In this document: piece by piece, positions 7,930 to 53,837 of the stretch
Layout of the letters: each line of letters begins with the position of its first letter
How positions within the stretch are numbered: the stretch's first letter is position 1
Sequence record: NC_048195.1
DNA from: Escherichia phage vB_EcoM_WFC
Reading direction: 5' to 3' (one strand)
Length of the DNA stretch: 64,000 bases
Made by a program: the position numbers and the translations under genes
The notes under the pieces: generated by a model
Database searches by the model: none
Seen by the model: only the letters and a program-made list of their open reading frames with translations
What the model was told of the DNA's origin: nothing

Positions 7930-7967
7930 TTTACGGTCCTCGTTTTGTCGACAACCGTATTATAACC

Positions 7968-8309
7968 TTAATTTCTTTTGAGAGGAATATGACGATTGCT
8001 GCCATTATTTGGTTTAATAATGAGCATAAATATGATCAAAAAGATGATGGCTGATATACTTAATTCAATCAGCGCGGCCTGAGAAATGGATTGGTCTTCG
8101 TGATATTGCTTTTGCATTTCGGCCTTCTTTTGAGCGCAAACTTCAGGCGATATATAATCACCTTTTGAATTGCCATAATAGATTTCGCCGTTTTCTGAAA
8201 TAAGGCGTCCGCAAATATCTGTTTCGGCTTTTGCGCTGGACATCATAATTACAGTTCCAATGATTGCCGCGATGGTCCAGATTAGCAGTTGTGATAAGGT
8301 GTTATTCAT
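7968..8309 (-). CDS. Membrane protein (N-terminal signal/TM and C-terminal TM)
   Basis: 113 aa; hydrophobic segments at both ends. Confidence 0.5.
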   Translation of the reverse strand: MNNTLSQLLIWTIAAIIGTVIMMSSAKAETDICGRLISENGEIYYGNSKGDYISPEVCAQKKAEMQKQYHEDQSISQAALIELSISAIIFLIIFMLIIKPNNGSNRHIPLKRN

Positions 8310-8506
8310 AATAATCTCTCTTTTAAATCCCTTCCCATTTCGGGAAGGGTAATATTATTTAACGCGGTAAAACAGACGCGTTCCACACAGCGAGTCCCAA
8401 CGGCCTTCGCCATCCCATACCGACCCAACGCCAGCGGTAATTGGGCCAGCAGAATTGGCGGCATTGGCCCAGGCTAGACGTTTCAACTTCCAACTGCACC
8501 ATCGAT

Positions 8507-8740
8507 TCACAGTTCATCTCCAGATTGCAAAATAAGACCCGCATAGAGGATTGCCAAAGCCAAAGGTGCACCACCACCAGCCTCTCTATTCTCTTTGATT
8601 TGAAGAGTATCCTTAAGGAATTGCAACTGAACGTTGAATTCATTTTCAATTCCAAGAACTCCAGCCAATTCTTTTACAGAATCTGCATATGCCTTGTCTA
8701 GCAATTCTTTTGGTACTGTTAAAGTCAATTCATTTGCCAT
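8507..8740 (-). CDS. Hypothetical protein
   Basis: Start refined to ATG at 8740 inside track ORF 8507-8758. Confidence 0.4.
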   Translation of the reverse strand: MANELTLTVPKELLDKAYADSVKELAGVLGIENEFNVQLQFLKDTLQIKENREAGGGAPLALAILYAGLILQSGDEL

Positions 8741-8951
8741 TTTCTTTCCACTCCACAAATGTGCTGCCGCTTGTTTCTCTATTTAGCAGGTATCTGCCGC
8801 GCATTCCATGAAGGCTGAATTCAACCGTCGATGGATTAGATTTTGAAAGCCATATAGGTTGTCCGTCGAATGGACCGCCTATGCATGTGTATTTAGCTTT
8901 TGGCTCACTCCTTTTGGGCCGTTTTGCCCGCTCTTTGATTGATAGTCTCAT
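8730..8951 (-). CDS. Hypothetical protein (73 aa)
   Basis: ATG at 8951 with AAGGTGA RBS. Confidence 0.4.
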   Translation of the reverse strand: MRLSIKERAKRPKRSEPKAKYTCIGGPFDGQPIWLSKSNPSTVEFSLHGMRGRYLLNRETSGSTFVEWKENGK

Positions 8952-9166
8952 CAGTCTTCACCTTGAGATTCCAGACAAGTAAGGACAAGCCACGTCATCG
9001 GAAGAATCAAAACCAGAGAAATGAGGGACCAGATAGACCAGCACAAGATGACAGACTTGAATGTGTGAACGTCGCCAAACGCAGCAGTAAAACAGAATCC
9101 CATCACAAATGCAATAGCGGTGGAATGGTTGTCTATGGCTTTTATGGCACGGTCGATGAGTTTCAT
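8951..9166 (-). CDS. Small membrane protein with two TM segments (holin-like topology)
   Basis: 71 aa; two hydrophobic helices; function not established. Confidence 0.4.
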   Translation of the reverse strand: MKLIDRAIKAIDNHSTAIAFVMGFCFTAAFGDVHTFKSVILCWSIWSLISLVLILPMTWLVLTCLESQGED

Positions 9167-11622: not shown

Positions 11623-13998
11623 ATGAAAATTCTTGGCATAAAACTCTGGGAGAAGACGCAACCAGAAGCCGAACCAGCGGAGATGCCGCCAGGCGACCCA
11701 TTGGCACCGTTTGAACGCCTGGAAAGGCGCGGCAGCGGTCAACGCTGGGATAAGACCGAAAGCAACCGCCCGACCTTTAAAACCGTTGATGACTTTCCTT
11801 TATATGAGCCTGATATCAACGGGGACGGTGTTGCAATCATCAAAGGTCGCTCAGTAGATTCAGCAACCGTATCCAAAAAAGTTATGGATAATGCTTTGAA
11901 GAACATCAGTTCAGAAGGGCAGGTTAATCCATACACAGTACCTATTCAGTTGCAAAACTGGTACTTATCGCAATCATTTATCGGATATCAAGCTTGCGCC
12001 ATCATCGCGCAGCACTGGCTGGTGAACAAGGCTTGTTCCATGGTAGGCCGCGATGCGGTCCGTAAAGGCTGGGAAGTCAAATCCAGTTCTGAGTCCGAAT
12101 TATCAGTGCAGGCCAGCGAACGCCTAAAGCAAATTGATAAAGAATTTAATATCAAAGAGCACTTAGTTGAAGCCGAACGATTCAAAAATATTTTTGGTAT
12201 CCGCGTCATCATATTTGATGTGCGTAGCGATGACCCAGAATACTACAGTAAACCTTTTAACATTGATGGTGTGACAAAGGGGTCTTATAAGGGGATCATT
12301 CAGGTTGACCCTTATTGGATGATGCCATTTCTGACGTCTGAAAACACCGCCGACCCTGCTTCACAGCACTTTTATGATCCAGAATACTGGGTGATCAGCG
12401 GACAACGTTATCATCGCAGCCACCTCATCATATTGCGCAACGATGAGCCAGCTGATATTCTTAAGCCGACTTACATCTACGGCGGCATTCCTCTAACTCA
12501 GCAGATTTATGAACGCATCTATGCCGCTGAACGTACCGCTAACGAAGCACCATTGTTGGCGATGTCTAAACGTACAACGACACTACGGACCGACGTTGAC
12601 AAGGCGATTGCCAATGAGCGGTCTTTTGCCGAACGCCTGATGATGTGGATTAAGTACCGCGACAACTATGCTGTTAAGGTACTTGGCCAAAAAGAAGAAA
12701 TGGACCAGTTCGACATCAACTTGTCAGACTTCGACAGCATCATCATGAACCAGTACCAGCTGGTGGCCGCAATCGCAAAAGTTCCGTCGACCAAACTGCT
12801 TGGGACTTCGCCAAAAGGCTTTAACGCCACTGGTGAATTTGAGATGGTCAGCTATCACGAAGAGTTGGAAACGTGCCAGCAGCATGACCTGACAAAAATT
12901 CTCGACCGCCATTACAAAATCCTTCTCAAATCAGAAGGGGTGGAAGTCGACGTTAAGGTTGCATGGGAACCAGTTGGCTCACTTACTGCTACTCAACTTG
13001 CAGAAATCAACGACAAGCGAGCTAACACTGGCAAAACTCTCATTGATGCTGGCGTCATTTCTCCTGATGAAGAGCGCGACCGCATCAAAGACGACAAAAA
13101 CAGCGGTTACAACCGTCTGCCGGAAGATGCAGCAGAAGAAACCCCAGGGATGTCTCCAGAGAATATGGCATTGCTTGGCAAGTCTGCTGGTGAAGTCCTG
13201 CAAGGTAAGGCTGATATTGAACAGGCAAAAGCTGATGTCGTTAAGATGGGCGGCCAGTTCTATAGCGAGACTGGTATTATGCCAGAAGGTGCCGCGCGTG
13301 GTGAGTTGGCGGAAAACCCTGACAGAGCACCTGTCGAAATTAACATGGACGATACCGATGATGAATCAAACCATCAGGTTGATGTCCTAACGCAGTTGAA
13401 AGAAGGTCTGGAGGGTATTGCGGATTACTACCTGAAAGAAGGTCAGGATGTGGATTTTGACCCTCAAAAAGATTCACGGTCGGTGCAGCCGTCTACCCTT
13501 CCAAGCGTCAAAGGTAATGTCGTAAACTTACGACACAACGTTGGCGAGATGGACGCAGCATCATTACCTAAGATGAAGTTGCACGGAATGATTCTTGGGA
13601 TTGAGAATCCTCGCAACAGCATCCGTAGAGGAAATAGCCTTGACGGTGAATGGGCAGTCAAGATGCCGCACCACTACGGATTCATCAAAGGCACCAAGGG
13701 CGCGGACGGCGATGAAGTCGACTGCTTTGTTGGCACAAATCTGAAGTCGCCGAAGGTCTTTATCGTGAACCAAAACGATAACTACTCTGGCGAGTTCGAT
13801 GAACACAAGTGCATGCTTGGATTCGATTCAGCAGAAGAAGCAAAAGAAGCTTATCAGGCATCATTTGGTAACGGTTGGAACGGATTCGACTCAATCCACG
13901 AATTAGATGTGAACTCATTCAAAGAGTGGTTGAAGGGTGATTGCTCTCAAGCATACGGAGCACTCAATAATCCTACTAATTCACCGAAGCAAGGTTGA
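11623..13998 (+). CDS. Portal protein with C-terminal extension carrying an inorganic-pyrophosphatase-like motif
   Basis: About 790 aa; position after terminase; C-terminus has HHYGFIKGTKGADGDEVDCFV matching the family I PPase pattern D-[SGDN]-D-[PE]-[LIVMF]-D-[LIVMGAC]. Confidence 0.7.
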   Translation: MKILGIKLWEKTQPEAEPAEMPPGDPLAPFERLERRGSGQRWDKTESNRPTFKTVDDFPLYEPDINGDGVAIIKGRSVDSATVSKKVMDNALKNISSEGQVNPYTVPIQLQNWYLSQSFIGYQACAIIAQHWLVNKACSMVGRDAVRKGWEVKSSSESELSVQASERLKQIDKEFNIKEHLVEAERFKNIFGIRVIIFDVRSDDPEYYSKPFNIDGVTKGSYKGIIQVDPYWMMPFLTSENTADPASQHFYDPEYWVISGQRYHRSHLIILRNDEPADILKPTYIYGGIPLTQQIYERIYAAERTANEAPLLAMSKRTTTLRTDVDKAIANERSFAERLMMWIKYRDNYAVKVLGQKEEMDQFDINLSDFDSIIMNQYQLVAAIAKVPSTKLLGTSPKGFNATGEFEMVSYHEELETCQQHDLTKILDRHYKILLKSEGVEVDVKVAWEPVGSLTATQLAEINDKRANTGKTLIDAGVISPDEERDRIKDDKNSGYNRLPEDAAEETPGMSPENMALLGKSAGEVLQGKADIEQAKADVVKMGGQFYSETGIMPEGAARGELAENPDRAPVEINMDDTDDESNHQVDVLTQLKEGLEGIADYYLKEGQDVDFDPQKDSRSVQPSTLPSVKGNVVNLRHNVGEMDAASLPKMKLHGMILGIENPRNSIRRGNSLDGEWAVKMPHHYGFIKGTKGADGDEVDCFVGTNLKSPKVFIVNQNDNYSGEFDEHKCMLGFDSAEEAKEAYQASFGNGWNGFDSIHELDVNSFKEWLKGDCSQAYGALNNPTNSPKQG

Positions 13999-38865: not shown

Positions 38866-39828
38866 TTAAAAATACTCCATATCGGTAATATCACGGAAGC
38901 ATTTATACAAAGCAGAGCGCGGCACGTCGACGATGCCAAAGTTAAAGAATTTATACGTTAGGTATTTATCGCGATAGTTCTCGCGATTCTCCCAAAGCAT
39001 TTTACGCTCTGCCATAGGCATTGAACCAGCGGAGACGCGGAAAGGAATCATTTCACCTTTCTCATCCACATATTTTGGATTGACGACTACGAATGAGCCA
39101 AGGTATCCTTTCGCAACTAAACCTTCAGCCTCTTTTGAACGCTTGGTGCGACCCAATTCGTCAATGAATGCTTCGTTGTTATTCTCCATCATCTCAACGA
39201 AGTCTATGATCAACCCTTCTTCATCGGTCCACGGCTTGTCCTTCCACACATCACGTGACTTCGGCGTCGCGCGCCCATGCTTATATTTGCCCGTCCAAGA
39301 CTTGCCATACAAGCCTTCATATCCAAGCTGGTCTGCTTCGATTTGCATCGCCGCGTACTGTTCCATATTTTCGATGTTTCGATATTCGAGAGCGCGAAGG
39401 AATGGGCGTCGACCATGGTTGATGAGATGTTGATTAACTTCAGCAACTCTAGCTCGATAGTTTGCATAACGCTTTTCAAAAGGCAGATCAGGGTCGCTGA
39501 AGTCATCAAACACCCACCATGTAAAGTTAGTGATTGCATCAGTATTCATGCATGCAGTATAGGCCTGTTGCATGACGTTCTTATCATTTGGATTGCCGTC
39601 GATTAGCTCTCCATCAAGTCCGTGAATTAGTTCACCCAAAAAGAGGAACTCTTTTTTGATTTGAACGTTGCGCAACGGCATGCCGGAAGTGCCCATTGGC
39701 AAGTTGTCATACGCCATTGCACGTATGCCATCGACCTTGAATGACAGTCCGCAAGGCAGCGGCACGTCCTCGCCGCGCTCGATAATCTGCTTACGTTGGC
39801 AACCCTTCATTGGTTTTAATGCTGTCAT
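38866..39828 (-). CDS. ATP-dependent DNA ligase (phage-type)
   Basis: 320 aa; nucleotidyltransferase motif I KVDGIR. Confidence 0.6.
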   Translation of the reverse strand: MTALKPMKGCQRKQIIERGEDVPLPCGLSFKVDGIRAMAYDNLPMGTSGMPLRNVQIKKEFLFLGELIHGLDGELIDGNPNDKNVMQQAYTACMNTDAITNFTWWVFDDFSDPDLPFEKRYANYRARVAEVNQHLINHGRRPFLRALEYRNIENMEQYAAMQIEADQLGYEGLYGKSWTGKYKHGRATPKSRDVWKDKPWTDEEGLIIDFVEMMENNNEAFIDELGRTKRSKEAEGLVAKGYLGSFVVVNPKYVDEKGEMIPFRVSAGSMPMAERKMLWENRENYRDKYLTYKFFNFGIVDVPRSALYKCFRDITDMEYF

Positions 39829-39830
39829 AA

Positions 39831-40454
39831 TTATTGTCCTGTAACTTCTCTGATCACACGGTCTTCAAGTTCCAGCTTCTTTACCATTTTGCAGGAGTGC
39901 TCATAAGCGGGATCAGTAGATTTGATGAACGTTCCGTTGTACATGACACCTTTGCGGTCCTTGATGTCTTCGTAGGCCGCTTGCGCACAGTCGGATAAGC
40001 GAAGGCCATAATCATGAGCTACGCCGGAAAGGTAATCGACTGCGGCCATGATGGTGACGTCAATATCCATGGTCTGATTCTTAGCAATAGCATCACCAAG
40101 CCGTCCAAGGGTCTTTGCCAGGCGAAGGATGAATGAATGAGGGTGAGCGCCTTTATCAGCGCAACCGCCGCCATTAATGTTTTCGATTTCAGTACCGTTT
40201 TGCGCCGCCAGGATGGTCAACACAACAAGACAATCGCCAATGTCGTCCTTGATTGCAGCTTGCAAGTCACAGATGGCCTGCTCTGTATATCCAATTTCAG
40301 GGTCGAAGAACACAAGGTCATGGAGTTGATCAACGTGGTCGGTTAACTCCCCAAACTCGCTGATAAGCTTCGGGTATTGGTCCTTAAGGTCGCAACCTTG
40401 GATGATGTTACGGTCAGAAGCCCACTGGCGAATGTTTGCATAAATCTGTTTCAT
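39831..40454 (-). CDS. MazG-like nucleotide pyrophosphohydrolase
   Basis: 207 aa; two MazG-like helical repeats with EFGELTDHV and DIGDCLVVL signatures. Confidence 0.6.
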   Translation of the reverse strand: MKQIYANIRQWASDRNIIQGCDLKDQYPKLISEFGELTDHVDQLHDLVFFDPEIGYTEQAICDLQAAIKDDIGDCLVVLTILAAQNGTEIENINGGGCADKGAHPHSFILRLAKTLGRLGDAIAKNQTMDIDVTIMAAVDYLSGVAHDYGLRLSDCAQAAYEDIKDRKGVMYNGTFIKSTDPAYEHSCKMVKKLELEDRVIREVTGQ

Positions 40455-41947: not shown

Positions 41948-42505
41948 TTACTTTTTGCTTTTAGGCAAGGTTATTTTAGCTTCTTTGTATTCAAAAACGC
42001 TAATATCTTCACTAACTGGATTGCCCGCTTCCAGCTGTTCTTTTACAAACGACTTCAGTGTAGCAGAATGAACGCCTTGTTTCAACGTGGCTTCAACACC
42101 ATCTTCACGCAGCGCAGCAACAATCTCTTGCGCCTGTTCGATTTCTTCGCGACCGAACTCAGCCGTGACGCTGGACTTGATCAAGCCGCCGTAACCGTTG
42201 TTGACAAGCCAATCGAAAACTTTTAATTCGTTTTCTTTCTTGATTGAAGCGTTCACCCTGGACTCGACCTTGATTTTGGTCTTGTCCTCAAGCTTGATTT
42301 CGGACACGCCAAGCTCATCCATAACGCCAGGAAGCAGAACAGTTTTGATTTCACTGATGCGCTGCTTTTGCATATCAGCTTCATCTTCAAGCTCTGTCAA
42401 AGCTTCTTGTCGTTCTGCCAGTTCAGACACTAAGCGCGCAAGGCGCTCTTGAATGCTCTCAGGAGCAACCTGCGGCAAATCATCTTCCCAATTAATATTG
42501 CTCAT
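41948..42505 (-). CDS. Hypothetical acidic coiled-coil protein
   Basis: 185 aa ORF. Confidence 0.45.
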   Translation of the reverse strand: MSNINWEDDLPQVAPESIQERLARLVSELAERQEALTELEDEADMQKQRISEIKTVLLPGVMDELGVSEIKLEDKTKIKVESRVNASIKKENELKVFDWLVNNGYGGLIKSSVTAEFGREEIEQAQEIVAALREDGVEATLKQGVHSATLKSFVKEQLEAGNPVSEDISVFEYKEAKITLPKSKK

Positions 42506-48219: not shown

Positions 48220-48246
48220 ACAAAAAGGCCGCCCATTAGGACGGCC
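48220..48246 (-). terminator. Rho-independent terminator (minus strand)
   Basis: GGCCG/CGGCC hairpin followed on minus strand by TTTTTG. Confidence 0.5.
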
Positions 48247-48262
48247 ACAGATTCACGATTCG

Positions 48263-48814
48263 TTATACAGTGTACGGAGTACCGTCTTGATTCAAGCGCA
48301 CGATAAACTTCAAATCAACGCCGATGATTTCACGCGTATCAAAGATCACATAGTTGTAACGACGTTGACCAGCAATGTTTGGGTTGGTGTGAGAGTCGGT
48401 CACAACTTCCTGCGCAACCTGAATGCCTTCTTCTTTAAAGAACTTGCGCCATTCAGCAAGTTCAGCGGCAGTCACGTGCATACCAAGATGGCTAACCTGA
48501 TTGTCGTGCGCATCGATGTATTCGATGTTTTCGTGAATCCAGTTGCAACCTTTTGTATAGTCAAGAATTTCAAGCTCAAGAGGCTTACCAGCGCCGCCAT
48601 CGGTGCCGTTGCCAGCCTGATAGTTGAAGCGCAAGTCAGCTTCGTTGGTGCAATCGCCGCGCTGACCCTTAAAGACATCAGCTTCAAATACGCGACCAGT
48701 AGCAACAACGTGATCATGGAACCATTCTGTCAGGCCGATTTTAGCCAGGAAATTCTGTGCGCGCTGAGCACCTGGAATTGACAGGGCGATTTGTTCAATT
48801 TTAAAATGTGGCAT
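48263..48814 (-). CDS. Hypothetical enzyme-like protein (possible VOC/glyoxalase fold)
   Basis: 183 aa; fold assignment weak. Confidence 0.4.
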   Translation of the reverse strand: MPHFKIEQIALSIPGAQRAQNFLAKIGLTEWFHDHVVATGRVFEADVFKGQRGDCTNEADLRFNYQAGNGTDGGAGKPLELEILDYTKGCNWIHENIEYIDAHDNQVSHLGMHVTAAELAEWRKFFKEEGIQVAQEVVTDSHTNPNIAGQRRYNYVIFDTREIIGVDLKFIVRLNQDGTPYTV

Positions 48815-48910
48815 TTTGTTTCCTTAATTAAATATTATTGATTAATTACTGTGTTGTCTTCGTCCTGTTTCTTTTCAGGAGCGGGTGTGACAACTTCAAA
48901 TGTTCGTGAT

Positions 48911-49594
48911 TTATTTACCAAATGGAATATCAGTGCCAGACATAAAGCGCCATGCGCCCGTAATTAAGATATGGCGAATGAAGTCAGCAATTACTTGCGG
49001 CTCAGTCTCCAATCCATTCATCAATGCCTTTTTCTGGTATTCAGCGGCGTATTCAGGAGTCCAGCCGCGAGTCGCGCAAACGGCATCTTCAATCTGTTTA
49101 GACATGCCAGTGCCGCGCAACTTGTTAGGACTAATAGAGAATACCGTGATGCCGTACTTAGGCGTAAGTTCGTGAGCCATCTGCTTGCTGATCATAAGCG
49201 CAGCAGCCTTGGATGCATTATAACATAAGCTGGACGTCATAGGAATATGCGCAGCGTTGGAAACGATGTTGATCACAAAGCCTTTGTTGTCGATAAGACT
49301 TTTCAGCGCAGCCTGAGTCGTGTTAACGAAAGAGAATGCGTTGGTGTGCATAACGCGGTTAAACTCTTCATAGTTTACATCTTCAAACCAATTGTTAGAG
49401 TTGACACCAGCACAGTTGATCAAGCCTTCAACATCATATGGGCTTAAAATTTCTTTCATCTGTTTAGCATCGCGGACGTCATATCCGTATGCTGAATCGA
49501 TGCCAAGCACGTTATGACCGTAAGCGCCAAGGGTGTCAAAAATAGATTTACCAAGACCGGAATTGGAACCTGTTACAACAATTACTTTTTTCAT
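48911..49594 (-). CDS. Short-chain dehydrogenase/reductase (SDR) family oxidoreductase
   Basis: 227 aa; N-terminal TGSNSGLG (TGxxxGxG) and catalytic YNASK (YxxxK). Confidence 0.75.
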   Translation of the reverse strand: MKKVIVVTGSNSGLGKSIFDTLGAYGHNVLGIDSAYGYDVRDAKQMKEILSPYDVEGLINCAGVNSNNWFEDVNYEEFNRVMHTNAFSFVNTTQAALKSLIDNKGFVINIVSNAAHIPMTSSLCYNASKAAALMISKQMAHELTPKYGITVFSISPNKLRGTGMSKQIEDAVCATRGWTPEYAAEYQKKALMNGLETEPQVIADFIRHILITGAWRFMSGTDIPFGK

Positions 49595-49660
49595 TTATTT
49601 ATCCTTTTTTGGACTTCGTTTCGATGAGGTAAATATAACTCATCGAAACGCACAAGTAAA

Positions 49661-50536
49661 CTATTTATTGAAATTAATATTATGGGTGTTGACAAGACGT
49701 TCACACATGGCGCTATAAACACCATCATCGTGTATCGAGTCTTCATGCTTCAGGCCGCTGATTGCGAAGCGTGTAAGCTTGACAATCTTAAGCTCGAACA
49801 GGTGCCACATGTGGTAGTCTTCCGGTGTCTTCAACGTTACGCCATTAGGGAACAACACCTGCATAACCTGACCTACCATCACAGCGTTATCGCCATAAAC
49901 GGCATTGCGCTCACGGAAGGTCGCGGCCATCGCATCAAGAATATCAGCAGCGGTTGCTGGGGCTTGTTGTTCAACTTCAACAAGTTTAGTCTCTTCTTTC
50001 CCTGTTGCACTTGGATCAACTGCTAATTGTTGCACCACTTCACCTGCCTTGCAAAGATTAAATGTAAAGGCGATTTTATTTTGCGCCATGGAATTATAAT
50101 GCAAAGCTTCTTCTTGCATCCGCGCGAGTACGTCTTGTCTATCTTCAAATACGTTGATTATTCGATAATCGCCGTGTCGCAATACATACGATAACCATGC
50201 AGATTTCATAACAGTTGATGGACGCTTGTCGCCATGTTCTCTCATCTTGATTGTGAATTCATCAAAAGGGAAAACGTTGTCCAGACGTTCAAAAGTGACT
50301 TGTCTGTATTTTTCTGGTCTTGCAGTCCAATATTCAACCGCCTCACCGCGAAGTGATGCCGTCTCTACTGCTGACGCAATGTTAGGATAGAACTGATCAT
50401 AACCAATGCCGCTGTGGTAATCATCATAGTCGGACAACGGGCCTGCCACCCTGATACGGTCTAAGCGCCAACGGTCATCAAACAGAGTTCCGTCAAGGTC
50501 GAATACGTTTAAGATTTGGTTATTTTTGATACTCAT
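49661..50536 (-). CDS. HAD-superfamily phosphatase fused to C-terminal domain of unknown function
   Basis: 291 aa; HAD motif I FDLDGTLFDD; about 150-aa C-terminal extra domain. Confidence 0.55.
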   Translation of the reverse strand: MSIKNNQILNVFDLDGTLFDDRWRLDRIRVAGPLSDYDDYHSGIGYDQFYPNIASAVETASLRGEAVEYWTARPEKYRQVTFERLDNVFPFDEFTIKMREHGDKRPSTVMKSAWLSYVLRHGDYRIINVFEDRQDVLARMQEEALHYNSMAQNKIAFTFNLCKAGEVVQQLAVDPSATGKEETKLVEVEQQAPATAADILDAMAATFRERNAVYGDNAVMVGQVMQVLFPNGVTLKTPEDYHMWHLFELKIVKLTRFAISGLKHEDSIHDDGVYSAMCERLVNTHNINFNK

Positions 50537-51336
50537 CCTTTTGATACTCCATCTTTGGCAACTGGATTATTGGTGATTGGCATCGCATCCCAAAACTGGA
50601 TGCGCAACTCTTCTTGCTGTGCAGTGGTATCCATCCAATCACGATACCATGGGCAATGGGCCTTACCGTGACGAGGAAATGCGCACTTACCCATACCGAT
50701 GCACTGCGGCTGTAGTAAAGGATTGGCCCACGGGTGCACCTTAAGGACTTCCGCAACCATTGCACGGAATACTTCTTGATACTCGCCTTGAGTACGCGTG
50801 CACAAGCGGTTAGAGGCCATTTGTTGTAGAGTGCGCAAGTTGAACTTTGCCATGATATGCGTTTGCATATTAGAAGGCAACACGGCACGTGCATCTTGAA
50901 TCTCTGCGCCAGCCGCGCGAAGTTCTTGGTATAGGGCGTCAATGGTTGCCATTGCATCATCCCATTTCTCTGCCAGTTCAGCAGCCTTCTCGTCATGACG
51001 AGTCCATCCCTTTGGATCATCCTCTGGGTAAGTAAATTTGGCAGGACGAATCGCATCAAACGCTGATGACTCTTGAGCGCGGCTTGTGCGTTCTTGATAT
51101 GCACCTGTTCGTGTGCGCACCATCTGATGAGTCATATTCTTTGATACATCAGTGATGTCAAAGATATAGTCAACAAAGTCGAAAGGTGACTTGATGGTGT
51201 CAAGCATGTAGCGCCAGTGCTCTTGCTTCTCTGATTCTGTCATCTCAGAGACGGGCTTGCCAGTCATGCGCGTGTTCTTTGTTTCCAGCAAAAGGTCAAG
51301 TGCATCTTGGGTGTATCGAATTAATTCAACTTTCAT
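50533..51336 (-). CDS. thyX: Flavin-dependent thymidylate synthase ThyX
   Basis: 267 aa; THQMVRTRTGAYQERTSR aligns to ThyX core RHR...Y.E.S.R; second block ARAVLPSNMQTHIMAKFNLRTL; 4-nt overlap with HAD gene. Confidence 0.7.
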   Translation of the reverse strand: MKVELIRYTQDALDLLLETKNTRMTGKPVSEMTESEKQEHWRYMLDTIKSPFDFVDYIFDITDVSKNMTHQMVRTRTGAYQERTSRAQESSAFDAIRPAKFTYPEDDPKGWTRHDEKAAELAEKWDDAMATIDALYQELRAAGAEIQDARAVLPSNMQTHIMAKFNLRTLQQMASNRLCTRTQGEYQEVFRAMVAEVLKVHPWANPLLQPQCIGMGKCAFPRHGKAHCPWYRDWMDTTAQQEELRIQFWDAMPITNNPVAKDGVSKG

Positions 51337-51349
51337 TTTAATTATCCTA

Positions 51350-51796
51350 TTAACGGTAGTTAACTAGTTGCTGATCACCAGAGAAGGTGCAATGATAAAC
51401 GAATTGTGCGTTATAAAGCAACTGAAAACTTTTCTTTGGTTCATTATTAGAACTCATTGATGTAAAGATTTCTGCACCAGAACGGTTTTCACCAATAAGG
51501 TTGATAAAGCCGCCAGTTGAACGAGGTTGGACGAAAGTGAAACGTTGCATCCACGGAGTGCGGTTGGCACCTTTCCCTGTGAATCCCTGAATCTGAATAT
51601 TCAGACCTTCTTGCTCGTTCACACCGATGTAAGTGGTAATTGTTGCGCCAGTCGTCGCTGCAGTCTTGCCGTCCATCGCTTCGCAATCGTAAACAGCGAT
51701 TGAATCGGAAGTACGGACAGCGGCTTCAGTCGCTTCCATATACATGGTTCCGAGAATAGCAGTTGCGGCAAGCGCGATTCCAGTGATGCGTTTCAT
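51350..51796 (-). CDS. Small secreted protein with signal peptide (function unknown)
   Basis: 148 aa; MKRITGIALAATAILG... signal-like N-terminus; two Cys. Confidence 0.5.
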   Translation of the reverse strand: MKRITGIALAATAILGTMYMEATEAAVRTSDSIAVYDCEAMDGKTAATTGATITTYIGVNEQEGLNIQIQGFTGKGANRTPWMQRFTFVQPRSTGGFINLIGENRSGAEIFTSMSSNNEPKKSFQLLYNAQFVYHCTFSGDQQLVNYR

Positions 51797-51861
51797 TTTC
51801 GTTTCCTCTATGAGTTCTGCTTCAATGATTAAAGTATACGCCCATTGAAGCAGAAAGCAAA

Positions 51862-52857
51862 TTATTTATTAGCAATATAAGCAAATTTTTGATAGTTATT
51901 TGCTTTGATGAGTTTTTCAACTTCAGCAAGGTCATGGGCGACGTCATCAAGCAAAATGTTTCGCCAAGTAGCGAATCGACCGACACTAAATACGTTCAAA
52001 TCCATGGTCAGTTGCAGGAGTAGGGCGTGTCGTAAGTCTTTCGGAATGTCGACAATCTTGCCATACTTCTGGTCAACCTTTTCAACTTCTTCAAGAGCGA
52101 TGTCACTCCATGAGAGGCCAAAAGCCGTCAATACTTCGTCAACTTCTGCACGCAACTTAATGTCACGGTAACGAGTAATGCCGCCAGCGGCTTCAACTGC
52201 GGCTTCACTTACGCTAACCAAAGGAATTGTTTCAATGATCAGCGTGTCACCAGTGATTGATGCGCGGTAAGTTCTGACGGAGTAGTCAGGAAAGTAAATG
52301 GTTTGATACAGTTCACACTTGCGTTTAATCTTAAAGCGGTAAACACGAATGTTTGCCTTATCGAATGAGAAATCAATCTTTTGATCAATCCCAGCAAGCT
52401 TCATCATGACTGGCAGCGGCGATGTGTTGATGATTGGCGTCTCGCTATAGCCGCAAAGCGTGTCGACCGGAGTATTAAAGAATATACGGTCACCCAGTTT
52501 ATCGACAAGCTGATCATAAAAGTCATCAGGCGCAATATAACGCGTTGCAGTTTTAAGCTTCATGATTGAACGGCTGCCAAACTGATTGGTGACCTTCATG
52601 GAATACATATTGGCAAGGTTGATTGGGCAATGGTCGTGATAGTAGTTACCGCGAAAATACACAGCCTTGTCAACTGTCACGGCCTTAAAAGGGATTCCGG
52701 TAATACGGCTTACTTCTTCGCCGCGAAAGCGTAGCAGTGCCTTGTGCTGTGGCGCTCGCTCCCCTGCTTCGTACACAATAGAGTTCGGGAAGTGACACGC
52801 GGTAATAAGTCCTGCCAAACCGCCGCCGATAATCATTACAGGTTGTTTCATGTTCAT
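51862..52857 (-). CDS. FAD/NAD(P)-binding oxidoreductase
   Basis: 331 aa; N-terminal Rossmann dinucleotide motif VMIIGGGLAGL. Confidence 0.6.
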   Translation of the reverse strand: MNMKQPVMIIGGGLAGLITACHFPNSIVYEAGERAPQHKALLRFRGEEVSRITGIPFKAVTVDKAVYFRGNYYHDHCPINLANMYSMKVTNQFGSRSIMKLKTATRYIAPDDFYDQLVDKLGDRIFFNTPVDTLCGYSETPIINTSPLPVMMKLAGIDQKIDFSFDKANIRVYRFKIKRKCELYQTIYFPDYSVRTYRASITGDTLIIETIPLVSVSEAAVEAAGGITRYRDIKLRAEVDEVLTAFGLSWSDIALEEVEKVDQKYGKIVDIPKDLRHALLLQLTMDLNVFSVGRFATWRNILLDDVAHDLAEVEKLIKANNYQKFAYIANK

Positions 52858-52930: not shown

Positions 52931-52963
52931 CAGACGAAAAAAGACCCACAACAAGTGTGGGTC
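52931..52963 (-). terminator. Rho-independent terminator (minus strand)
   Basis: GACCCACA/TGTGGGTC hairpin followed on minus strand by TTTTTTCG. Confidence 0.55.
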
Positions 52964-52991: not shown

Positions 52992-53837
52992 TTATTCCGC
53001 TTGATCACCGTCTTCAGCATCGTCGTTGGATTCAACATCGACAAACTCGATGTGGCCCATCTCTTCCAGCTTGCTCAGGTAGGAGCGAACGGAAGCGCCA
53101 AACAGTTGATCTTTAACTTTTTCGCCCAGCTCATCGATAGACTGTGCCACACCAACTTCGCCTTCTTTGATCGCCGCCAGAACGCGTCCACGGGTGGAAT
53201 GCTCTTGCGGCTGGCTCAGGCCATTGCCAGTGTAGATGAAGTGAGTGGCTTTTGCACGACGCTGACCGTTTGCCTTTTTAGCAGCCTTACGTTCTGCGAT
53301 GGCTTTGCGACGTTCTTCAGCTTCTTTCTTACGCTGTTCTTTCTGCTGTTCTGCAGCTTCTTTCGCCGCAATCTTAGCAGCTTCACGCTCTGCCTTGCGT
53401 TTCGCTTTAGCTTCTTCTTTGGCCTTCTCTTTTTCGGCCTTCGCTGCAGCACGGGCTTGATCACGCTCTGCTTTCTTGGCCGCAGCCTGCTCAGCTTTCA
53501 GGCGCTTGGCTTCTTCTTTAGCCTTTGCCTTTTCGATTTCTTTTGCTGCTTTAGCGGCTTCACGCTCTGCTTTCTTAGCAGCAGCCTTTTCTGCACGCTC
53601 TTTAGCTTTCTTAGCTGCTTCTTCAGCACGCTTCTGAGCCTTCTCATCAGCAGCCTGCTTGCGTTTCAGCGCAGCTTCTTCACGCTTGGCTTGTTTTTCC
53701 TGCTCACGCTTCTGGCGTTTTTCTTCGGCTTCTTTCTTTTTAGCCAGGCGTTTTTCTTCAGCCACGCGACGACGTTCTGCTGCGGCTGCTTGTTTTTCTT
53801 CTTTAGATAATACTTTGATTGCTTCGGCCATATTCAC
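52992..53837 (-). CDS. Lys/Ala/Glu-rich low-complexity coiled-coil protein with globular C-terminal domain
   Basis: 281 aa; about 200 aa of KAEEKR-type charged repeats then about 80-aa non-repetitive C-terminus. Confidence 0.55.
   Translation of the reverse strand: MNMAEAIKVLSKEEKQAAAAERRRVAEEKRLAKKKEAEEKRQKREQEKQAKREEAALKRKQAADEKAQKRAEEAAKKAKERAEKAAAKKAEREAAKAAKEIEKAKAKEEAKRLKAEQAAAKKAERDQARAAAKAEKEKAKEEAKAKRKAEREAAKIAAKEAAEQQKEQRKKEAEERRKAIAERKAAKKANGQRRAKATHFIYTGNGLSQPQEHSTRGRVLAAIKEGEVGVAQSIDELGEKVKDQLFGASVRSYLSKLEEMGHIEFVDVESNDDAEDGDQAE

Follow-up and report, generated by a model that had tools for sequence, protein, structure and literature searches.

The DNA analysed here is a 64,000-nucleotide stretch of Escherichia phage vB_EcoM_WFC (NC_048195.1), referred to as the window, in which six minus-strand open reading frames (ORFs) between positions 52,857 and 48,263 bring together a UGM-like flavoprotein, a non-canonical ThyX, and a HAD phosphatase fused to a DUF6378 domain. 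The analysis points to a role of this gene cluster in making a sugar-derived thymidine in virion DNA, of the same kind as that of the Pseudomonas phages F8 and 14-1 (Pbunavirus), and the probability of this reading is put at about 0.5. No other enzyme-rich gene set is common to the modified Pbunaviruses and the restriction-proof Wifceviruses, the genus of the window, and the cluster is therefore the best candidate for the pathway or for part of it. From the sequence comparisons, its core module consists of the UGM-like flavoprotein, the non-canonical ThyX and DUF6378, the last usually fused to the HAD phosphatase, with an SDR and a VOC-fold protein as a frequent accessory pair.

The assignment to Wifcevirus is based on the 99.2% identity of the window to Escherichia phage vB_Eco4M-7; other members of the genus (ECML-117, WFH, Mansfield, and BASEL phages Bas98-101) are 92-97% identical to it. 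Wifceviruses are virulent myoviruses with genomes of 66-72 kb, and the Pseudomonas Pbunavirus (PB1-like) phages are distant relatives, treated here as a sister genus. The six ORFs were confirmed at the coordinates reported in an earlier, sequence-only reading of the window. Their order is UGM-like flavoprotein, signal-peptide protein, ThyX, HAD-DUF6378, SDR and VOC-fold protein:

51862..52857, minus strand: UGM-like FAD-binding flavoprotein, 331 amino acids (aa), phrog_4828, first gene of the unit
51350..51796, minus strand: 148-aa protein with a basic, then hydrophobic N-terminus (signal-peptide-like)
50533..51336, minus strand: non-canonical ThyX, 267 aa, with a Cys-containing C-terminal extension; Thy1 match
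49661..50536, minus strand: Pnkp-type HAD phosphatase (residues 1-175) fused to DUF6378 (residues ~195-285); its start overlaps the ThyX stop by 4 nucleotides (nt)
48911..49594, minus strand: classical SDR, 227 aa, accessory module; adh_short E 2.6e-31, phrog_3142 E 3e-46
48263..48814, minus strand: last gene of the unit, 183 aa, accessory module; probable VOC (glyoxalase/dioxygenase) fold, family-level Glyoxalase_4 matches

Conservation of the gene cluster

Relatives of the flavoprotein with 39-99% identity were found in 80 metagenomic loci surveyed in IMG/VR. These loci share the order flavoprotein, ThyX, HAD, DUF6378, (SDR, VOC), Pol III epsilon, Pol III alpha and SNF2 helicase, and the order flavoprotein, ThyX, HAD/DUF6378, Pol III epsilon/alpha also occurs in about 300 Pbunavirus genomes. 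Downstream DNA of 3.5 kb or more is available in 62 IMG/VR loci, and the gene after the flavoprotein is ThyX in all of them, a linkage far beyond chance. All 56 complete intervals contain DUF6378; 39 of them have both SDR and VOC, 15 neither of the two (the Pbunavirus type) and 2 a single one. A single stop-to-stop reading frame covers HAD and DUF6378 in 35 loci, and in 19 the two occupy separate frames.

The cluster is common to Wifcevirus, Pbunavirus, Kyle, MTx, FoX7 and others. Its flavoprotein belongs to a family of about 1,900 members, nearly all on phage-sized contigs, which is represented in 360 phage records, including 292 of Pseudomonas and 25 of Escherichia phages as well as records of Serratia, Xanthomonas, Pantoea, Rhizobium and Ralstonia phages. 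The trio of flavoprotein, ThyX and DUF6378 is also found in Rhizobium phages, which are unrelated to this lineage. In one of them, RHph_Y65 (207 kb, Kleczkowskaviridae), the three lie within 6 kb with unrelated genes between them, and dUTPase and ribonucleotide reductase genes adjoin. Since the trio stands here in a different gene context, the conserved core can be narrowed to flavoprotein, ThyX and DUF6378. A 40-kb Ralstonia phage carries the same three without HAD. The gene-neighbourhood comparison proposed in the sequence-only reading thus came out in favour of a conserved linkage to ThyX, which is kept in hundreds of genomes and extends to another phage family. Two RefSeq names in RHph_Y65 (7950-8912 and 13243-13965) look wrong, as the 'polysaccharide deacetylase' is the UGM-like flavoprotein and the 'phosphoheptose isomerase' the HAD and DUF6378 protein.

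Between the Pbunaviruses F8 and 14-1, the flavoprotein is 97%, ThyX 94% and HAD-DUF6378 79% identical. The HAD-DUF6378 gene and the small ORFs 58, 60 and 61 form a local divergence hot spot with 78-82% identity, compared to 94-99% for the neighbours, and the linker of the fusion protein bears an expanded acidic AEDA repeat in F8 (locus L006, 10285-11349) that is absent from 14-1 (locus L087, 7940-8956). This divergence was considered as a clue to the identity of the sugars in F8 and 14-1 and proved uninformative, because the differences are mostly in the repetitive acidic linker.

A divergent ThyX clade

The ThyX protein of the window matches Thy1 (PF02511) with an E-value of 1.2e-30 and 107.1 bits against a cutoff of 24.8, and stays below the NCBIfam equivalog cutoff of TIGR02170 (83.1 vs 87.9 bits). 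The 80 ThyX proteins adjoining the flavoprotein were aligned and compared using the numbering of T. maritima ThyX (TM0449). The arginines R78, R80, R90, R147, R165 and R174, which bind deoxyuridine monophosphate (dUMP) and FAD, are kept in 80/80 members. His53 is replaced by Ile, His59 by Phe, His79 by Thr, Ser or Asn, and His178 by Arg, each in 80/80; Tyr91 is Val or Ala in 79/80, and Ser88 is mostly Thr. Where a canonical ThyX has the signature RHR(X7-8)S together with Tyr91, the window protein reads RTRTGAYQERTSRA, with H79 changed to T, S88 to T and Y91 to A. The phage enzyme therefore resembles canonical ThyX (TM0449) in its Thy1 fold and in all six substrate- and FAD-binding arginines, and differs from it in having RTR for RHR, Ile for His53, Thr for Ser88 and Ala for Tyr91.

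In a published folate-complex structure of canonical ThyX, His53 stacks on the folate. Tyr91 and Ser88 have been called strictly conserved in ThyX, whose flavin can react directly with a free aldehyde, formaldehyde, via a flavin carbinolamine, and the exchange Y91A slows the use of this carbinolamine more than 100-fold (Bou-Nader et al., PMC8316439).

A search of 1.8 billion cluster representatives returned 363 ThyX-like clusters at E<=1e-10. The motif could be parsed in 66 of the best 150 of these 363 clusters and nearly always reads R[T/N/S/Q]R…R[non-Tyr], RHR…RY being found in two only. Judging by these alignments, the phage proteins belong to a large, distinct ThyX clade in which dUMP and FAD binding is apparently retained and the residues around the carbon-transfer step are changed.

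The 60-aa C-terminal extension of the window ThyX bears a CX4C...C pattern. A possible metal site, the pattern QCxxxGxCAFPRxG…C within the C-terminal ~55 aa (50533-50700), occurs in 39/80 clade members (Wifcevirus, Kyle and Pbunavirus types) and is missing from the Rhizobium and Ralstonia versions. Inteins are present inside some homologues of the clade (representatives P0279, P0288, P0389 and P0336-P0379 were surveyed), and an RQR…RF subclade has a 200-300-aa N-terminal extension without a Pfam match. In the longer ThyX-like homologues, the N-terminal extensions and insertions were either inteins or contained no domain at all.

The partner proteins

The flavoprotein has a fold of the UGM / protoporphyrinogen oxidase / amine oxidase type, with the three domains of the UGM type, and its family shows many invariant Arg and Lys residues. 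No Pfam or NCBIfam match, including the UGM models, was obtained at E<=0.1, and a sequence search of the PDB gave nothing significant. According to the sequence-only reading, the co-operonic enzymes, this additional flavoprotein among them, could supply reduced flavin to ThyX. The proposal gained no positive support, and a flavin reductase feeding ThyX was rejected, the fold being of another type. In known ThyX enzymes, the FAD is reduced directly by NADPH.

The description of a HAD phosphatase fused to an unfamiliar domain was borne out. The HAD domain contains the DxD nucleophile motif, matches PF25109 above the cutoff and is closest to the end-healing phosphatases T4 Pnkp and Pnkp1. Unlike T4 Pnkp, the phage protein has no kinase domain and carries its phosphatase N-terminally, fused to DUF6378; the phosphatase is also dispensable in some relatives that retain DUF6378 alone. 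The C-terminal domain, modelled as a four-helix bundle, probably belongs to DUF6378: the window protein itself has no PF19905 match, and 13 of 17 aligned homologues match DUF6378 (PF19905) with a best E-value of 3.2e-6. A literature search found no function for DUF6378, and a search with its profile against PDB sequences gave nothing significant. The possibility of a MazG-like all-alpha nucleoside triphosphate pyrophosphatase was tried by hhalign against the MazG-like protein of the window and a small MazG-like protein of Pantoea phage Kyle, with probabilities of 0.9% and 0.2%; as single-sequence templates give low power, this idea is unsupported rather than ruled out. In Kyle itself, an extra 96-aa MazG-like pyrophosphohydrolase is encoded between ThyX and HAD-DUF6378 (8723-9013), which hints at nucleotide-pool editing tied to the cluster. 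The 4-nt overlap between the ThyX and HAD genes noted earlier is present at 50533-50536.

The SDR assignment of the sequence-only reading is unambiguous, given the adh_short match and the motifs TGxxxGxG (TGSNSGLG) and YxxxK (YNASK), both present in the translation. Its PDB matches are FabG-like (up to E 1e-12), and weak matches to sugar epimerase families were found. A VOC fold, previously called possible, is plausible for the product of the last gene: the window protein matches Glyoxalase_4 weakly (E=0.09, 13.5 bits vs a cutoff of 27), 13 of 21 family members match, with a best E-value of 2.2e-5, and a profile search found no PDB sequence match. The residues E82, H109 and D167, invariant in the family, are candidate metal ligands, as is Q8.

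For the 148-aa protein, no family match was found. Its homologues are confined to the Wifcevirus loci L001, L002 and L007-L009, and Kyle and Pbunavirus have unrelated small ORFs at its position. It is a Wifcevirus-specific insert and probably stands outside the pathway. Its earlier description as a signal-peptide protein is compatible with the N-terminus, whereas its inclusion in the enzyme cluster did not hold for the conserved set.

DNA modification in Pbunavirus and restriction escape in Wifcevirus

DNA of the Pbunavirus F8 resists five enzymes with TG-containing sites and is cut by five whose sites lack TG (Yee et al. 2025, bioRxiv, PMC12191111). By liquid chromatography-mass spectrometry, new thymidine-derived nucleosides of 362 and 390 Da were detected in F8 and 14-1 DNA and read as tetrose-alcohol and cyclised pentose derivatives, and the hypermodified thymidine, located at TG sites, accounts for about a quarter of all T (PMC12191111). 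The authors state that Pbunaviruses carry no gene previously implicated in DNA modification (PMC12191111), and no later paper assigning genes to the modification was found in the literature searched.

The Wifceviruses Bas98-101 contain 30-38 EcoRI, 6-14 EcoRV, 87-93 EcoCFT_II and 82-90 EcoP1_I sites and, according to the authors, have no known genome protection mechanism (PMC11990801). Nevertheless, in the raw data, Bas98-100 plate with an efficiency of ~0.3-1.7 on the EcoRI and EcoRV hosts, and of ~0.3-2.4 across EcoRI, EcoRV, EcoCFT_I and EcoCFT_II (PMC11990801). Escape from type II systems with so many sites would normally mean modified DNA. On the EcoP1_I host, the same phages form zero plaques despite an efficiency of ~1 on all other restriction systems tested and equally many EcoCFT_II sites (PMC11990801), a block that looks stronger than ordinary type III restriction.

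The two genera are thus alike in their restriction evasion and in carrying flavoprotein, ThyX and HAD-DUF6378 in matching order beside the same Pol III replicase. They differ in that Pbunavirus is without the SDR and VOC genes. A scan of ten other non-structural ORFs of the window for modification enzymes gave only VapE-like primase/helicase and Pam3 gp33/gp34-like matches, and a scan of nine ORFs of 14-1 gave nothing beyond VapE-like and Pam3 gp33/gp34-like matches. The Pbunavirus unknowns ORF69-71 are not shared with the window.

Palindrome footprint

If TG sites are chemically protected and hence free of selection, palindromes containing TG are expected to be spared. The 64 six-base palindromes comprise 16 with TG (hence CA) and 48 without, and a palindrome was counted as depleted when it fell below a quarter of expectation. 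In the window, a Wifcevirus sequence carrying the cluster, 0/16 TG palindromes and 23/48 of the others are depleted, a contrast with a Fisher p of 2e-4 under the mononucleotide and 1e-3 under the dinucleotide expectation. The corresponding counts for the compared genomes are:

Ralstonia PY059YO380, carries the cluster: TG-containing depleted 1/16, others 21/48
Pbunavirus F8, carries the cluster, TG-modified: TG-containing depleted 2/16, others 16/48
T7, unmodified control: TG-containing depleted 6/16, others 24/48
HeidiAbel (Bas97), unmodified restriction-sensitive control: TG-containing depleted 6/16, others 28/48

Among 45 metagenomic loci, 43 show weaker depletion of TG palindromes than of the remaining ones, and the sparing in F8, which the window shares with this Pbunavirus, is weak. 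Apart from the TG contrast, 15 of the 64 six-base palindromes are absent from the window, including GGATCC, GGTACC, CTCGAG, CCCGGG and GCTAGC; enzymes with zero sites include BamHI, KpnI, XhoI, SmaI, ApaI, NheI, AvrII and SacII. GATC occurs 110 times vs 247 expected and CTAG 41 times vs 247 expected, and HindIII, SalI and BclI sites are 2-3-fold enriched.

Proposed mechanism and comparison with known pathways

Genes, folds, motifs, operon structure, gene linkage and the changed ThyX active site are shown here, and the restriction resistance and the modification in the sister genus are published. We infer every catalytic step of the proposed mechanism as well as the link between genes and modification. 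The ThyX-like enzyme would bind dUMP and FAD and functionalise C5 of a deoxyuridine nucleotide; without His53 and Tyr91, the usual folate-to-methyl chemistry would not proceed in the canonical manner. The UGM-like flavoprotein would act on a sugar or nucleotide-sugar, and the HAD domain would take the phosphate off a sugar-phosphate or nucleotide intermediate. In the lineages that have them, SDR and VOC would modify the sugar through reduction or epimerisation.

Covalent catalysis by the N5 of reduced flavin is common to ThyX and UGM. A more specific version of the mechanism is speculative and judged improbable: ThyX and the UGM-like flavoprotein would catch an aldose or aldose phosphate as a flavin-N5 iminium and move it to C5 of the deoxyuridine nucleotide, giving a C-C-linked sugar-thymidine. 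The HAD domain would then remove the sugar phosphate, and SDR and VOC would diversify the sugar. The masses are compatible, as deoxyuridine (dU, 228.2) plus pentose (150.1) minus H2O plus 2H gives 362.3, which corresponds to 5-(1-deoxypentitol-1-yl)-dU, that is, thymidine with a tetritol chain, and dU plus hexose (180.2) minus H2O gives 390.3, a C-glycoside equivalent to thymidine with a 'cyclised aldopentose'. Since O-linked adducts of 5-hydroxymethyldeoxyuridine (5-hmdU) have identical masses, mass alone cannot tell C-C-linked from O-linked products.

The 5-hmdU-based pathways of M6, ViI, PaMx11, SP10 and PhiW-14 (Lee et al. 2018, 2021) are similar in being phage multi-enzyme clusters near replication genes, in converting part of the T to a bulky adduct and, in PaMx11, in involving a flavoenzyme. 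They use a ThyA-family dUMP hydroxymethylase, a P-loop 5-hmdU DNA kinase and aGPT-Pplase transferases, none of which turned up in the Pfam matches obtained for the cluster and for ten further non-structural ORFs (small ORFs not scanned). In contrast to these pathways, the pyrimidine enzyme of the window is of ThyX type, and the adduct of the sister genus is sugar-derived, not amino-acid-derived.

Counter-evidence and alternative explanations

Several points weigh against a role of the cluster in sugar-thymidine synthesis. Most of the synteny is confined to one large phage lineage with a common type of Pol III alpha/epsilon replicase, and much of it can be put down to vertical inheritance, RHph_Y65 being the exception. 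No glycosyltransferase, base kinase, dioxygenase, transglycosylase or sequence-specific DNA-binding enzyme was found in the cluster, and a TG-specific modification calls for a step at the DNA level, for which enzymes of the nucleotide and sugar type are not obvious candidates. The adducts of F8 and 14-1 differ while their flavoproteins and ThyX are near-identical, so that something else must determine the sugar at least in part. The phage ThyX may also still be a working thymidylate synthase. The palindrome test covers five genomes with two controls, a small sample, and AA/TT palindromes are spared in the window as well, as they are in T7. Finally, the attempt to derive a Wifcevirus motif from the restriction data was given up, because EcoRI and EcoRV sites contain no TG and a TG motif thus does not explain the resistance to these enzymes. 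F8 DNA is cut by EcoRI (PMC12191111) and Wifceviruses plate normally on an EcoRI host, so that a Wifcevirus modification would differ in motif or extent. The modified-pyrimidine pathway already considered in the sequence-only reading is partly supported. It is strengthened, strongly if indirectly, by the conserved ThyX linkage, the divergent ThyX, the sugar-thymidine of Pbunavirus and the type II escape, and weakened by the failure to find a sequence-specific transferase acting on DNA.

The same genes could instead serve ordinary supply of thymidine monophosphate (dTMP) for rapid replication, with ThyX accompanied by unrelated helpers. HAD-DUF6378 would then be an end-healing 3'-phosphatase partnering the ligase of the phage, flavoprotein, SDR and VOC would be auxiliary metabolic enzymes unconnected with DNA chemistry, and the restriction resistance would have another cause. 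This explanation is rather unlikely. It would account for the strong Thy1 match (E 1.2e-30) with all nucleotide- and FAD-binding arginines kept, for the proximity of the HAD domain to T4 Pnkp and Pnkp1, for the phage-encoded ATP-dependent ligase, for the location within the replication module, and for adducts that differ between F8 and 14-1 when these enzymes hardly do. It does not sit well with the loss of His53 and His79 (80/80) and of Tyr91 (79/80), the latter reported as strictly conserved and kinetically critical, nor with the tight linkage of this ThyX clade to the UGM-like flavoprotein and DUF6378, found in an unrelated phage family as well. Moreover, type II escape with 30-38 sites needs protection at the DNA level, and no other candidate enzymes were found among the ORFs scanned. 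A thymidylate module with no DNA modification, either folate-independent or pool-editing, is distinctly unlikely. In the folate-independent form, a flavoprotein of the amine-oxidase/UGM fold would make a one-carbon aldehyde or iminium donor for direct use by the His53-less ThyX, in line with the fold shared with amine oxidases and with the Ile found in 80/80 in place of His53, the residue that stacks on folate in canonical ThyX. The acceptance of free formaldehyde by ThyX via the flavin carbinolamine (PMC8316439) is also in favour, whereas the loss of Tyr91, which assists carbinolamine use, is not. In the pool-editing form, HAD-DUF6378 would degrade competing dTMP/dTTP or dUMP like the dTMPase/dTTPase of uracil- or hydroxymethyluracil-containing Bacillus phages; the 4-nt overlap, which couples the phosphatase translationally to ThyX, and the MazG-like insert of Kyle fit this, while the hhalign comparison showed no similarity of DUF6378 to the two MazG-like sequences tested. 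Both forms leave the restriction resistance and the sugar adduct of Pbunavirus unexplained.

A sugar-nucleotide pathway for the host surface, in which a UGM-like mutase, SDR, epimerase-like VOC protein, phosphatase and exported protein would together remodel O-antigen or lipopolysaccharide or serve superinfection exclusion, is very improbable. The UGM-like fold, the weak SDR matches to sugar epimerase families, the signal-peptide protein within the operon and the use of O-antigen as the Wifcevirus receptor would suit it. However, the conserved partners are ThyX and DUF6378 and not glycosyltransferases or flippases, the exported protein is limited to Wifcevirus, and the module lies within the replication gene block in every lineage. 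In addition, a strictly lytic, reportedly very fast phage would presumably gain little from slow surface remodelling.

Transcription unit and neighbouring genes

Two terminator-like hairpins were found at the borders of the cluster:

52943..52963, minus strand: hairpin upstream of the unit, at the end of the preceding K/A-rich gene; 8-bp stem with 5 GC pairs, followed by TTTTTT
48227..48246, minus strand: hairpin closing the unit, before the Pol III epsilon gene; 8-bp stem with 7 GC pairs, followed by TTTTT

Terminators are annotated in phage Mansfield at places matching both. As these two strong hairpins enclose exactly the six genes, one transcription unit is supported, and the single minus-strand operon proposed earlier agrees with both the hairpins and the ORF coordinates. 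The operon had also been described as adjoining MazG, ligase and replisome genes. This is correct for the replisome, with Pol III epsilon and alpha directly downstream of the unit and a Dda-like helicase upstream, but not for MazG (39831-40454) and the ATP-dependent ligase (38866-39828), which lie 8-9 kb from the cluster.

Directly upstream of the operon, 52992-53837 (minus strand) encodes a 281-aa protein whose C-terminus is small and globular and which also contains a long histone-H1-like stretch of low complexity, rich in Lys, Ala and Glu. Pbunavirus has the gene in synteny, annotated in phiKTN6 as a virion structural protein, and the product may be a packaged DNA-binding protein. Farther along the minus strand, 41028-41888 matches the Pam3 gp34-like family (E 4e-86) and 41948-42505 the Pam3 gp33-like/DUF7307 family (E 7e-37). 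Both replication-module proteins are shared with Pbunavirus 14-1, as ORF51 and ORF52.

Significance

In Pseudomonas therapy, Pbunaviruses belong to the most frequently used phages, and their sugar-thymidine was shown in DNA only in 2025. The analysis names a specific conserved gene set as a candidate for the genes behind it. The cluster has not previously been described as a modification pathway and would be a variant of phage thymidine hypermodification. As the Wifcevirus isolates Bas98-101 of the BASEL collection grow on engineered K-12, the question can be tested in E. coli K-12. The divergent ThyX clade needs an explanation even if the hypermodification reading is wrong. If it is right, the cluster would represent a new hypermodification route that is ThyX-based instead of ThyA-based, DUF6378 and the flavoprotein family with its about 1,900 members would gain a function, and there would be a reason why Wifceviruses ignore most restriction systems.

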